Positions 51,766 to 54,350 are shown, counted from the stretch's first letter. The stretch: DNA of 64,000 nucleotides from an uncultured bacterium (GCA_903831805.1 CAIKZD010000014.1:2078-66077), one strand, 5' to 3'. A program made the numbers and translations. Notes: generated by a model from the sequence alone, not told the origin.

Positions 51766-51837
51766 TCCGCGGTAGCTCAATGGTAGAGCAGTTGACTGTT
51801 AATCAATTGGTTATAGGTTCGAGTCCTATCCGCGGAG
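51766..51837 (+). tRNA. tRNA-Asn (anticodon GTT)
   Basis: Acceptor tccgcgg/ccgcgga, D-arm gctc..gagc, anticodon loop ctGTTaa, T-arm ggttcgagtcc. No CCA is encoded. Confidence 0.85.
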
Positions 51838-51902
51838 CAAATTAAAAAATGGCTTACTATAGCCATTTTTTGTTTAAGTCTAAATTTAATTGTTGCATTA
51901 AA

Positions 51903-51944
51903 TGTAACAAAATGTTACAATTAGAGTAAACTAATGTAACAATT
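51903..51944 (+). promoter_or_regulatory. operator-like repeats upstream of fic-like gene
   Basis: Inverted repeat TGTAACA-aaa-TGTTACA followed by direct repeat ATGTAACAATT, 12-50 nt upstream of the GTG start. Confidence 0.4.
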
Positions 51945-51955
51945 AAAGTAACCTT

Positions 51956-53011
51956 GTGAAAAAATTAACTCCTCGTCAGAATTCAATACTGGAATTTATA
52001 CAAAATCAAGAGCAAGCCAGCACCAAGGAAATTAAAGAATATCAGGAGTTAAAAACAGGGACATTGAATAGAATTACAATCATAAGAGATATCGATGTCT
52101 TAATAACAAAAAAACTAATTAAGAAAACAGGGAAAGGAAGGGGCGTTTCCTATAGCGTACTAATCGAAAATCCCCTAATGCTTTTTTATGATATTGATAA
52201 ATATTTTGAGCAATCTATGGAAGAAAGAAATTCTCAAAAAAACTTTAACTTTGATATTTTTAAAAATTTCAATAATTCAATATTTTTGAAAGAAGAATTG
52301 ACTGATCTTGATAGACTGAACAACAATTATCGAAAAAGAGTTGCAAAACTTTCTCCGACTATTCTGAGAAAAGAATTTGAAAGATTGACTATAGAATTGA
52401 GCTGGAAGTCATCCCAGATAGAAGGAAACACCTATTCCTTGATAGAAACAGAAATTTTGATAAAGGAAAATCAAGAGGCTTCCGGTCACACAAAATCAGA
52501 AACGCAAATGATCCTAAATCACAAAAAAGCTTTGGATTACATTATTAATAATCCTAAAATTTTTAAAGAACTGACTCTTTCTAAAATTGAAGACTTGCAT
52601 CAGTTGCTCACTTTCAATCTTGGAGTTGAAAAAAATGTTAGAAAAACATTGGTTGGAATAACGGGGACTGACTATAAGCCATTGGATAATCAATTCCAAA
52701 TAAAAGAGGCTCTGCATGAAACATTCTTGATTATCAACAATATAGATTTACATCCTCTATTAAAAGCACTTTCCGCAATTGCCTTAATTTCCTATATTCA
52801 ACCCTTTGAAGATGGAAATAAGAGAACTGCCAGAATTTTAGGGAATGCCATTTTATTAGCTTGTGAGTATTGTCCGTTATCCTACAGAAGTGTTAATAAG
52901 AATGACTACAAAAAAGCGACTTTACTTTTTTACGAACAAAGCAATCTTCGTCCTCTAAAAGAAATGTTTGTTCAACAATTTGAAGTTGCAGTGGAAAATT
53001 ATTTTGGATAG
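51956..53011 (+). CDS. Fic/Fido-fold protein with N-terminal winged-helix domain and degenerate active-site motif (QPFEDGNKRTAR)
   Basis: Canonical Fic motif HPFx[DE]GNGRxxR; here His->Gln and second Gly->Lys. The N-terminus KLTPRQNSILEFIQNQ...STKEI is wHTH-like. Confidence 0.7.
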   Translation: MKKLTPRQNSILEFIQNQEQASTKEIKEYQELKTGTLNRITIIRDIDVLITKKLIKKTGKGRGVSYSVLIENPLMLFYDIDKYFEQSMEERNSQKNFNFDIFKNFNNSIFLKEELTDLDRLNNNYRKRVAKLSPTILRKEFERLTIELSWKSSQIEGNTYSLIETEILIKENQEASGHTKSETQMILNHKKALDYIINNPKIFKELTLSKIEDLHQLLTFNLGVEKNVRKTLVGITGTDYKPLDNQFQIKEALHETFLIINNIDLHPLLKALSAIALISYIQPFEDGNKRTARILGNAILLACEYCPLSYRSVNKNDYKKATLLFYEQSNLRPLKEMFVQQFEVAVENYFG

Positions 53012-53133
53012 ATAAATGCGATTCGGACTTCTTCTAGGCTTCGGAGCAATATATAACAAGAGCGGCGGAAACGTTGCTTTTTGTTTTGTTTAAAGGTTAG
53101 CTGCACTTCAGATTAGAATTCGAGGCCAATTGA

Positions 53134-53162
53134 TTGACACCGTCTTTGAAATATGCTTAAAT
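53134..53162 (+). promoter_or_regulatory. sigma70-like promoter for 53230 gene
   Basis: TTGACA - 17 nt - TTAAAT. Confidence 0.45.
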
Positions 53163-53229
53163 AGATATTCCGAAGAGGAAATAAACCCAGTTTTTTACCA
53201 AATAAATCAAACACCAGAAGGAAACGAAA

Positions 53230-54297
53230 ATGAGCAGAACGAAAAAAGCATGCATACTGTGTAATCCAGAATTTTTAAAGAATAACCACTACGTCGAGTG
53301 TGAGTCGGAGTTGATAAGATTGATTAAGGAGATACTCTCTAAAACATCAGTCAAAAATCTGGAGTCTAAAAAAATAAAAGTTATAGATTTCACTGAGAGC
53401 AGCAAGAAAGCTGACCGAACCGACATCAAGGTTAGTCTCGATAAGAACAGCAAATTAACCACTATATTGATATTGCTAAGAAGCTATAGTGAGTTTTGGG
53501 AAATAACTATCAACCCAAATAAATATATCTGGGAAAATACGGATATCTTCTTTAGCGAGATAAAAGAGGCTGCTGACGCTATCTGCAAAGAGGAAAACGA
53601 AAACCTACCATTGCCAGGCGATGAGAAAAAGATTCCCACTCCTCCACCAGATACGAATGCAGGAAGGGAAGACTCCGGTCCAGCGGCGGTTAATAGCAGC
53701 ATTAAACCGAGAAAAAAAAGAATTGTAACTTCCTCAATTATCACCGACGAAGAGATTCTGAAGATATTTCTAAGTTGGATGAAACACACAGGGGGCGTGC
53801 AGAGAATATCCCAGAGAGAGTTCAGGGAGGTGATTTCAAAATTAGGCATTACTATCGCCGTTCAGATGCTCGTAAACTTTCTTTTTAAGAAAGGTCTAGT
53901 GAGCGTGATTTCTGCGAATAGGAAACCAATAATTGAGATCGCTTCAGCTGGAATTGATATTCTAAAAGAGCACGAAAGAAAGCTCGAGCTCGAGAGGCAA
54001 AAAGAGGAGGATGCCAGGCTTCTGCAAGAGAAGCTCGACTTCGCGAAAGACTCTTTATCGGTGCTACGTGTAGTAGAAAATCAGCAGACTATAAGTGCGC
54101 GACTTAAAGAGTTGCGAATCGCAGAAAAAACAATAATTCAAAAACTCACTGCTCTTCAAAAAGAATTAGCCGAACAGACAGAGAGACTTTCTACAGTCAG
54201 AGAAGCAAGACTTACCTATCTAGAAAAACTGGAAAATTCAACTTCCCCAGTAGACTGGAACGAGGTAAAAAGACTGACTAGAATAGCCGAAAATTAA
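53230..54297 (+). CDS. hypothetical protein (N-terminal Cys cluster, central HTH-like segment, C-terminal coiled coil)
   Basis: 355-aa ORF with its own promoter and terminator (54314-54350). No recognisable enzymatic motif. Confidence 0.5.
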   Translation: MSRTKKACILCNPEFLKNNHYVECESELIRLIKEILSKTSVKNLESKKIKVIDFTESSKKADRTDIKVSLDKNSKLTTILILLRSYSEFWEITINPNKYIWENTDIFFSEIKEAADAICKEENENLPLPGDEKKIPTPPPDTNAGREDSGPAAVNSSIKPRKKRIVTSSIITDEEILKIFLSWMKHTGGVQRISQREFREVISKLGITIAVQMLVNFLFKKGLVSVISANRKPIIEIASAGIDILKEHERKLELERQKEEDARLLQEKLDFAKDSLSVLRVVENQQTISARLKELRIAEKTIIQKLTALQKELAEQTERLSTVREARLTYLEKLENSTSPVDWNEVKRLTRIAEN

Positions 54298-54313
54298 CGC
54301 TAAAACAGCGTAT

Positions 54314-54350
54314 GCAGCCTGCCAAGGAAACTTGGATAGGCTGCTTTTTT
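54314..54350 (+). terminator. rho-independent terminator
   Basis: gcagcctgccaaggaaacttggataggctgc + T6. Confidence 0.7.

Follow-up and report, generated by a model that had tools for sequence, protein, structure and literature searches.

A Gln/Lys-type winged-helix Fic gene with a putative autoregulatory operator, carried as a single-gene cassette in an uncultured bacterium

The Fic gene and its setting

The present analysis concerns a gene encoding a Fic protein, located in a stretch of 64,000 nucleotides from an uncultured bacterium (GCA_903831805.1, CAIKZD010000014.1:2078-66077; hereafter the window, with positions counted from its first letter). An earlier note on this DNA had described a tRNA-Asn(GTT) gene followed by operator-like repeats, a 351-amino-acid (aa) open reading frame (ORF) that combines a winged helix-turn-helix (wHTH) with a Fic domain whose motif carries Gln and Lys (Q/K) at two canonical positions, and one hypothetical gene on either side. 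ARAGORN, Rfam, Pfam and a repeat scan found the tRNA, the repeats, the ORF and the Q/K motif exactly where they had been placed (Table 1). The note interpreted this set of genes as a possibly degenerated toxin or defence module, left over from an island integrated at the tRNA. The results reported here lead to another description of the locus, that of a widespread accessory gene in healthy condition rather than of a toxin that has broken down on a tRNA island.

Fold and active site of the protein

Both a profile match and a modelled all-helical Fic fold assign the 351-aa protein to the Fido/Fic fold. The Pfam Fic profile (PF02661) matches at 3.2e-12 (47.5 bits versus a cut-off of 24), and a weak winged-helix match (Penicillinase_R) covers residues 4-90. 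An AlphaFold2 (AF2) model computed from a 75-sequence alignment, with a predicted local distance difference test score (pLDDT) of 94.2 and a predicted template modelling score (pTM) of 0.92, shows three parts: (i) a three-helix winged helix with two strands (residues 6-68), (ii) a helical linker (residues 71-135) and (iii) a class II Fic core (residues 136-351). The best PDB match of this model in Foldseek is FICD (E 9e-10, 245 columns, root-mean-square deviation 2.7 Å); other top matches are Caenorhabditis elegans Fic-1, BT_2513, SoFic, CdFic and Coxiella Fic2, with E values from 9e-10 to 6e-5 over the 50 listed matches. A sequence profile search of the PDB also retrieved FICD (1e-12 to 1e-15), and Doc chains were absent from its matches at E≤1.

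In this profile search, the two motifs, QPFEDGNKRTAR of the window and HPFIDGNGRTSR of human FICD, align at every column. Gln282 occupies the position of the catalytic His and Lys289 that of the second Gly, and D286, G287, N288, R290 and R293 are retained. The protein consequently does not carry the canonical AMPylase motif HxFx(D/E)GNGRxxR, having no His and a Lys289 instead of the second Gly. Upstream of the motif, S152-SQI-E156-G157 aligns with T-VAI-E234-G of FICD, as expected for a class II Fic protein, and the surrounding SWKSSxIEGNTY segment is kept in nearly all printed representatives and is invariant in A1/A2. As modelled, the architecture is that of a class II Fic protein with an intramolecular inhibitory helix, which combines a Doc-like Lys (NKRT) with a Fic-type final Arg. 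The alignments indicate that the metal and phosphate ligands (D286, N288, R290 and R293), the inhibitory Glu156 and the flap are retained. It is nevertheless unlikely that the Q/K protein performs AMPylation of the canonical, His-dependent kind or phosphorylates a hydroxyl group as Doc does, because the predicted pocket has no general base; on this point our analysis agrees with the earlier note, which had doubted that a winged-helix Fic protein without the catalytic His could be an AMPylase or a Doc-type kinase.

The Gln/Lys motif as a family signature

A homologue search with the 351-aa protein retrieved at least 7,995 homologues. Among the 120 closest ones, which come mostly from Patescibacteria (candidate phyla radiation, CPR), 119 carry QPF[EA]DGNKR. 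The source bacterium may belong to the same group, although these nearest Fic relatives are the sole hint of it. A HMMER search against 1.84 billion cluster representatives matched 3,148 clusters (50% identity) at E≤1e-3, including 221 at E≤1e-30; of the best 150 representatives, 88 are full-length proteins, and 84 of these have both Gln and Lys, at identities as low as about 31%. In these representatives the motif can be generalised as Y-[IL]-Q-[PA]-F-x-D-G-N-K-R-T-x-R, and SWKSSxIEGNTY and NHK are likewise conserved. When one genome was scanned for each species, at least 574 species proved to be carriers, at 47-62% identity; they belong to CPR, Bacteroidota, Akkermansia, gut Alphaproteobacteria, Melainabacteria, Gammaproteobacteria and other groups. 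Over the 81 loci that we compared, mean pairwise identity is 33% for the winged helix and 60% for the Fic core, the core being the more constrained part.

Codon usage at the two diagnostic positions was examined across 85 genes. Gln282 is encoded by CAA in 45 and CAG in 40 of them and never by CAT or CAC, and Lys289 by AAA in 53 and AAG in 32. Since a His codon is only one third-position transversion away, yet both Gln codons are used and no His codon occurs, Gln itself is under selection. Taken as a whole, these patterns indicate that Gln and Lys are fixed family-wide under purifying selection, and that the gene of the window is an intact and selectively maintained member of this family. The wording "doubly degenerate", by which the motif had first been described, and the degenerated toxin or defence module derived from it, do not withstand this comparison.

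Family members are also found on proteobacterial plasmids. One is located on a conjugative plasmid of Sulfitobacter sp. SK012 (L085:2464-3750), between repB, a helix-turn-helix (HTH) gene and a relaxase gene, and another on Rhizobium pT136c (L084:3968-4963), near a RES/Xre toxin-antitoxin pair. The motif of these plasmid members is YLQAFADVNKRTSR or YLQPFIDGNKRTGR, and the proteins are extended by about 80-100 aa at the C-terminus. Two further variants were encountered. P0221, a 259-aa relative among the HMMER representatives, carries YIYPFADGNGRVGR, with a Tyr at the His/Gln position and a canonical GNGR, and is a non-His variant close to the Q/K family. A member of about 260 aa on an unverified faecal phage contig (MT835728; L174, positions ~1400-2200) has LQPFIDGNKRTSR and KIEGNTYTY and is devoid of a winged helix; the Fic core of the Q/K clade therefore also exists without the DNA-binding domain.

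Relationship with described Fic proteins

A Gln-type motif was described in 2015. Khater & Mohanty (2015, Sci Rep, PMC4454073, section 6) distinguished Qx[F|Y]x[D|E][G|V]NKR as the fifth of their motif groups in the Fic/Doc family and named it clade D2, which contained 45 bacterial sequences that were "usually single-domain", had no known function and were argued not to be dead. The QPFEDGNKR of the window, with Gln in place of His, fits the D2 consensus, membership being assigned by motif consensus; like the Q/K family, D2 is an uncharacterised clade argued to be under selection, and it is bacterial only (PMC4454073). However, the family found here differs from the published clade by (i) its size, thousands of members compared to 45 sequences grouped with Doc, (ii) its architecture, since Q/K members, instead of being usually single-domain, have a winged helix at the N-terminus and an inhibitory helix of class II, and possess the final motif Arg, and (iii) its nearest solved relatives, which are FICD-type Fic proteins and not Doc. 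In the library that was searched, neither the literal motif nor queries on inactive or non-canonical Fic proteins led to anything beyond the 2015 paper, or to experimental work on His-less Fic proteins. The gene belongs to a Gln-type clade that is known (2015, in silico) but uncharacterised. The earlier note had itself allowed that its reading would fall if such a motif were general in an already described subfamily and if the locus were conserved in related genomes. The family does generally carry Q.F..GNK, as described for D2 (PMC4454073), so that the reading falls on this count; the locus, for its part, is not syntenic in relatives.

Among characterised proteins, FICD/HYPE and the class II AMPylases/deAMPylases (PDB 6i7k, 4u04, 5jj6) are the best match in both sequence and structure: the inhibitory (S/T)xxxE(G/N), the Tyr-x-[H/Q]-P-F-x-D-G-N-x-R-T-x-R motif and the flap region all align. 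In contrast to FICD, the Q/K protein has Gln for the general-base His and Lys for the second Gly of GNGR, carries neither tetratricopeptide repeats nor a membrane anchor, and possesses an N-terminal winged helix and a putative autoregulatory operator. With the P1 Doc kinase of the Doc/Phd system it shares the Lys in the anion-hole position and the NKRT segment (a Doc motif according to PMC4454073). However, Doc has an essential His, a small single domain and a separate antitoxin, Phd, and lacks the final Arg and the flap. The Q/K motif does not fit the HxFx(D/N)(A/G)NKR of Doc, because it has the Lys but no His, and has the final Arg that is absent in Doc-type proteins (PMC4454073); nor does a three-part protein of 351 aa with no conserved neighbour among 81 loci resemble a small single domain paired with an antitoxin.

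CbFic2 of Coxiella (PDB 8cil) and SoFic (PDB 3eqx), both matched by Foldseek, are likewise Fic domains fused to an HTH. DNA binding controls the oligomeric state and the activity of CbFic2 (PMC10628234), and SoFic is a single-gene toxic/abortive-infection Fic protein accompanied by a small downstream antitoxin, AS1 (PMC12249575). Unlike the Q/K protein, whose winged helix is N-terminal, both have a canonical HPFxDGNGR and a C-terminal HTH, with about 18-21% identity, and no equivalent of AS1 is conserved beside the Q/K gene. The PADLOC SoFic model matches the Q/K protein at 1e-17 but covers only profile positions 45-216 of 361, the PDC-S04 candidate-defence models match at 4e-16, and the score obtained with the NCBIfam SoFic equivalog, 20 bits, is far below its cut-off of 550, so that the protein is not a SoFic by this profile.

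Operator, promoter and limits of the cassette

The sequence ATGTAACAATTA occurs three times (≤1 mismatch) in the 64 kb, and all three copies lie inside the 59 bp directly upstream of the Fic start, the window containing no further operator-like site at this threshold. This bears out the operator-like repeats that had been noticed downstream of the tRNA, and shows that they did not arise by chance. They take part in two inverted repeats: I1, with 16-nt arms that are 94% complementary, links the H0 region with the arm holding H3, and I7 has 11-nt arms that are 91% complementary, with a 3-nt spacer. The Fic promoter is predicted as TTGCAT-17-TACAAT, its hexamers and spacing being read from the sequence, and three to four half-sites span the -35, the -10 and the transcript start.

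The same upstream element is found in an 85%-identical relative from Moraniibacteriota (L001) and in a more distant relative (L002, 62%), whose gene surroundings are quite different and include no tRNA. When the window was compared with L001 by blastn, similarity was restricted to positions 51885-53010, from the first half-site to the stop codon (82.4% over 1,126 nt), and the flanks were unrelated. The gene is thus carried as a 1.13-kb single-gene cassette (51885-53011). A two-gene type II toxin-antitoxin organisation was not recovered: the gene is single, its similarity to L001 stops at the stop codon and no partner is conserved.

The arrangement of the upstream repeats is a general feature of the family. 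At least three upstream copies of a 10-mer (≤1 mismatch) are present in 54 of 80 loci, compared to six of 80 equal-sized intragenic controls and a shuffle mean of 1.7 copies. A direct pair of half-sites matching at least 9 of 11 positions was found in 73 of the 80 loci, with a spacing of exactly 22 bp in 71, and some loci have two 22-bp pairs in inverted orientation. Furthermore, the half-site tracks the recognition helix by lineage: (i) SR[IV]T occurs with TGATAC, (ii) [ST][KR]MT with TGTTAC, (iii) SYAT[LI]KR with TGAGCT, and (iv) [SG][LY]ATVKR with CGGCTCA. Because the 22-bp spacing is conserved and the half-site changes together with the recognition helix, it is likely that the winged helix reads its own promoter, that an oligomer occupies sites phased by two helical turns, and that the gene is autorepressed. 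The earlier note had hesitated between a pseudo-enzyme and a regulatory DNA-binding protein; the comparative operator evidence argues strongly for the regulator, whereas a decayed enzyme does not agree with a Q/K pair that is invariant and selected.

Genomic context and origin

The GC content of the cassette is 0.31 compared to 0.447 for the rest of the window, and values of 0.29-0.40 extend over 50.6-54.4 kb, between flanks at 0.45-0.50. The Fic gene also has a lower GC content than its flanks in 95% of the loci longer than 6 kb (65 scored). By its composition, the cassette is foreign. The comparison with sister genomes that the earlier note had called for agrees in part: in 12 sister contigs, the 10 kb that precede ftsK contain none of these genes and no tRNA, but the contigs are too distant (FtsK 54-66% identical, synteny lost) for insertion boundaries to be mapped. 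Atypical composition and absence from related genomes, as expected of an island, are both observed, the latter in sisters that are this distant. In the closest of them (L141:6541-9918, FtsK 66%), the rpoC-ftsK slot holds a canonical XRE-HTH Fic gene (HPFSDGNGRIGR, i.e. HPFSDGNGR, with the inhibitory motif TYNSNKIEGS), a hypothetical gene and an AAA_14/DUF4143-type ATPase gene. Since the sister slot holds a different Fic-type accessory gene, the slot by ftsK is variable and the Q/K gene seems to be horizontally acquired.

Integration at the tRNA, as had been suggested from its position, is another matter. The Fic gene starts 117 bp downstream of tRNA-Asn, but the search for an att site found no second copy of the tRNA-Asn 3′ end in the window, which ends 12 kb downstream and might not contain the whole of a larger island. 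Above background, the tRNA was the only match: 24-nt and 16-nt patterns were sought with ≤3 mismatches, and local alignment of a 47-nt query gave best scores of 12-15, compared to a mean of 12 and a maximum of 14 for shuffled queries. No integrase or recombinase domain was found in the five ORFs scanned (51.1-55.5 kb). A tRNA lies within 500 bp of the gene in only one of 60 relatives, where it is a tRNA-Asp, and tRNA-Asn in none. The tRNA adjacency is incidental. In another locus (L047), a fragment of about 45 nt resembling the 3′ half of tRNA-Asn, from the anticodon-loop side to the acceptor end (GGTTCGAGTCCGACCCGCGGAGCCA, positions 4478-4525), directly abuts a Q/K Fic gene that is 5′-truncated at about residue 49 (4525-5430). 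It is surrounded by dnaG, rpoD, an FKBP gene and a small HNH gene, with no integrase nearby, and may be the scar of a tRNA-targeted integration or deletion. Carriage by phages is rare, with two weak matches in GenBank phages and about nine full-length relatives in IMG/VR (2.9 million viral contigs).

The neighbours of the Fic gene are not conserved either. Clustering of 398 neighbours (three genes on either side) revealed no conserved partner gene among the 81 loci, the largest cluster occurring in only four of them. Immediately next to the gene, the relatives have various housekeeping genes and, now and then, restriction-modification, AbiEii, AAA_14/DUF4143 and NYN genes, and bulk Pfam and PADLOC scans found no enriched function among these neighbours. 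In the window, the two flanking ORFs had been grouped with the Fic gene in a three-gene module. However, both retrieved only themselves among 5.8 billion proteins, neither has a significant match in Pfam, NCBIfam, PADLOC or PHROGs, and neither adjoins the Fic gene in any other genome of the neighbour clustering. The population contigs that reach past the tRNA have a uniform order (157-aa ORF, tRNA, Fic gene, 355-aa ORF, AHSA1, RibD_C). The slot beside ftsK is variable and low in GC, and it is by chance that the tRNA-Asn and the two ORFans adjoin the Fic gene there; they are not parts of a module.

Possible function and alternative explanations

With moderate confidence, we favour an overall picture in which the locus carries an intact, autoregulated wHTH-Fic cassette whose Fic domain is a nucleotide-binding, possibly hydrolysing, switch. 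An oligomer would bind the phased half-sites through its winged helices and repress its own transcription, and the Fic pocket would keep the binding of a nucleotide or phosphoryl ligand. The Fic domain would act as a nucleoside triphosphate (NTP)-binding, possibly NTP-hydrolysing, switch gating DNA binding, oligomerisation or a further effector output. The cassette itself would have been acquired horizontally, as an accessory gene of a type connected with stress, addiction or defence.

Several points weigh against this picture. DNA binding, repression and ligand binding are deduced from patterns in the sequence and from the homology with Fic proteins of the FICD type. The near-total invariance of the inhibitory Glu, the flap and the phosphate ligands would be expected of a true enzyme no less than of a pure sensor. 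Moreover, an effector activity beyond autorepression must exist, because a pure self-repressor has no selectable function, and defence genes are not clearly enriched among the neighbours. Finally, Q and K are present in all 77 retrieved loci where the ORF-based motif scan located the gene, but the loci of species genomes were fetched with the peptides QPFEDGNK and IEGNTYSL, so that the invariance of both segments in them is partly by construction, a bias that does not affect the HMMER representative set.

The alternative that survives best takes the Q/K Fic domain as a true non-canonical enzyme, a single-chain toxin or abortive-infection effector whose winged helix would be an antitoxin-like autoregulator and whose inhibitory helix would silence it until triggered. 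The candidate chemistries would be a Doc-like inverted-nucleotide phosphotransfer to a base-independent nucleophile, the activity of a Glu156-dependent hydrolase or de-modifying enzyme, or that of an NTPase. Such an enzyme is suggested by the near-invariance of all phosphate and metal ligands, inhibitory Glu and flap, by the NKRT segment common to the Doc motif (PMC4454073), and by the opinion of Khater & Mohanty that the clade is not catalytically dead (PMC4454073). The SoFic and PDC-S04 matches in PADLOC point in the same direction but are partial and concern canonical-His families. SoFic also provides the precedent of a single Fic protein causing abortive infection (PMC12249575), and tight multi-site autorepression, a low-GC horizontally transferred single gene, plasmid members and some defence-like neighbours (L002) would suit an effector of this kind. 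However, the pocket has no general base, whereas the His is essential in every characterised Fic/Doc enzyme (established knowledge, restated in PMC4454073), the neighbours of relatives are mostly housekeeping genes, and full-length relatives are as scarce in viral contigs as reported above. We therefore consider this explanation possible, although unlikely.

A broader proposal concerns the Q/K wHTH-Fic family as a whole, whose thousands of members range from CPR to Bacteroidota and include those on proteobacterial plasmids. It could be a distinct class in which the Fic fold was rebuilt for a His-independent reaction and coupled to the cooperative binding of 22-bp-phased operators, making a minimal, mobile, self-regulating single-gene system. 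One candidate would be an NTPase-type switch in which Gln282 orients a water molecule, Glu156 acts as the base, and Lys289, Arg290 and Arg293 sit on the phosphates; another would be transfer to a nucleophile that needs no general base. We put this proposal forward only tentatively and hold it to be rather doubtful.

The protein could also be a pure transcription factor, the Fic domain serving as a non-catalytic scaffold for oligomerisation or ligand binding and other host genes being controlled as well. The co-evolution of winged helix and operator, and the conservation of the Fic core as a folded unit, are compatible with this role. However, no additional operator-like site (≤1 mismatch) exists in the 64 kb, no conserved target gene accompanies the Fic gene as it moves between phyla, and a scaffold leaves the invariance of every catalytic-site ligand unexplained, which makes this alternative very unlikely. 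Hardly credible at all is the remnant of an island at tRNA-Asn, in which a Fic toxin would have decayed (His to Gln, Gly to Lys) to a dead pseudo-enzyme and the flanking ORFs would belong to the same module: the low GC content over ~50.6-54.4 kb, the absence of the region upstream of ftsK in sister genomes, the proximity of the tRNA and the tRNA-Asn-like 3′ fragment abutting the truncated member of L047 speak for it, but hundreds of sequences in many phyla have an invariant Q and K, with codons that vary only synonymously, relatives elsewhere share 82-85% identity with the ORF, which is full length, the window has no att-like repeat and the scanned ORFs no integrase domain, only one of 60 relatives has a tRNA beside the gene, the flanking ORFs have no homologues, and the arrangement is fixed in every sampled population contig extending past the tRNA.

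These results are of moderate to low interest for the locus of the window and of greater interest for experiments on the family. The clade of His-less Fic proteins that was pointed out in 2015 proves to be very large, with an extremely conserved active-site region, a horizontal spread across phyla and a stereotyped, predicted autoregulatory operator. The Q/K family is a tractable target for understanding what the Fic fold does without a general base, and its homologues in cultivable hosts (Flavobacterium, Bacteroides) and on several proteobacterial plasmids make binding, toxicity and phage-challenge experiments feasible.

Other features of the locus

Table 1. Positions of the Fic cassette, its parts and the adjacent features in the window.
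Feature	Position	Strand	Evidence or remark
157-aa ORFan, 7 Cys	51111-51584	+	promoter TTGACA-17-TTATAA (51023-51051), terminator 51610-51642; neighbour, not component
tRNA-Asn(GTT)	51766-51838	+	ARAGORN; Rfam 75 bits; neighbour of the Fic cassette, not component
Hairpin terminator of tRNA-Asn	51843-51872		fold z-score -4.55
Self-contained Q/K wHTH-Fic cassette (operator, promoter and ORF)	51885-53011	+	blastn versus L001; GC
Half-site H0 (TAATTGTTGCAT, reverse complement ATGCAACAATTA)	51887-51898	-	overlaps -35 hexamer TTGCAT (51893-51898)
Inner palindrome TAAATGTAACA-AAA-TGTTACAATTA	51899-51923 (arms 51899-51909 and 51913-51923)	+	inverted repeat I7
Half-site H2 (right arm of inner palindrome)	51912-51923	+	holds -10 hexamer TACAAT (51916-51921)
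Half-site H3 (ATGTAACAATTA)	51934-51945	+	22 bp after H2; predicted 5′ untranslated region, ~10 nt before GTG start
351-aa wHTH-Fic ORF, GTG start	51956-53011	+	
Inhibitory-helix motif S152-S-Q-I-E156-G157	52409-52426	+	fits (S/T)xxxE(G/N); aligned to FICD TVAIEG (Glu234)
Fic motif Q282-P-F-E-D-G-N-K289-R-T-A-R293 (QPFEDGNKRTAR, residues 282-293)	52799-52834	+	
Terminator hairpin 3′ of Fic ORF	53044-53091 (also called 53058-53081)	+	folding free energy (dG) -16.4 kcal/mol, z -3.6
355-aa ORFan	53230-54297	+	promoter TTGACA-17-TTAAAT (53134-53162); neighbour, not component
Terminator hairpin of 355-aa ORFan	54314-54344		dG -22.6 kcal/mol, z -4.4

The two flanking ORFs are as they had first been described, a Cys-rich protein upstream of the tRNA and a protein with an N-terminal Cys cluster downstream of the Fic gene. 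In the 355-aa ORF, which is identical or nearly so across samples, an N-terminal CxxC and a third Cys precede a Pro/Gly-rich disordered middle and a helical segment (residues ~173-229). Its single-sequence AF2 model is poor (pLDDT 54.9), and only a C-terminal helix of about 105 residues (231-336) is confidently modelled. The promoters ascribed to these ORFs have the hexamers and spacing that had been reported. The consensus scanner flagged neither TTGACA-17 promoter because of their weak -10 hexamers, and promoter-like sites across the region (12 compared to 9.9 expected) are overall not above chance. The strong terminators reported for the same genes were recovered as hairpins, and the three hairpins that follow the tRNA, the Fic ORF and the 355-aa ORF have fold z-scores from -3.6 to -4.6. 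Rfam detected no rRNA gene in the window.

Some minor features were also recorded. In a 53-aa ORF located between ftsK and the 157-aa ORFan (50705-50866, minus strand), a CxC/CxxC-type motif (ECKCPEC) precedes a hydrophobic segment, and a shorter, 49-aa gene is called near this position in population contig L086. A 117-aa ORF (56695-57048, minus strand) has a signal-peptide-like N-terminus, after which the sequence is of low complexity, enriched in Gly, Arg, Asp, Phe and Met, and contains repeated units of the (R/G)(M/F)DFxH/GR type. Lastly, gene orientation changes from minus (ftsK and upstream) to plus at ~50600-51200, where the cumulative GC skew, profiled over 44-60 kb, reaches its minimum. 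This coincidence is probably a local effect only, because the orientation reverts at ~55.6 kb.

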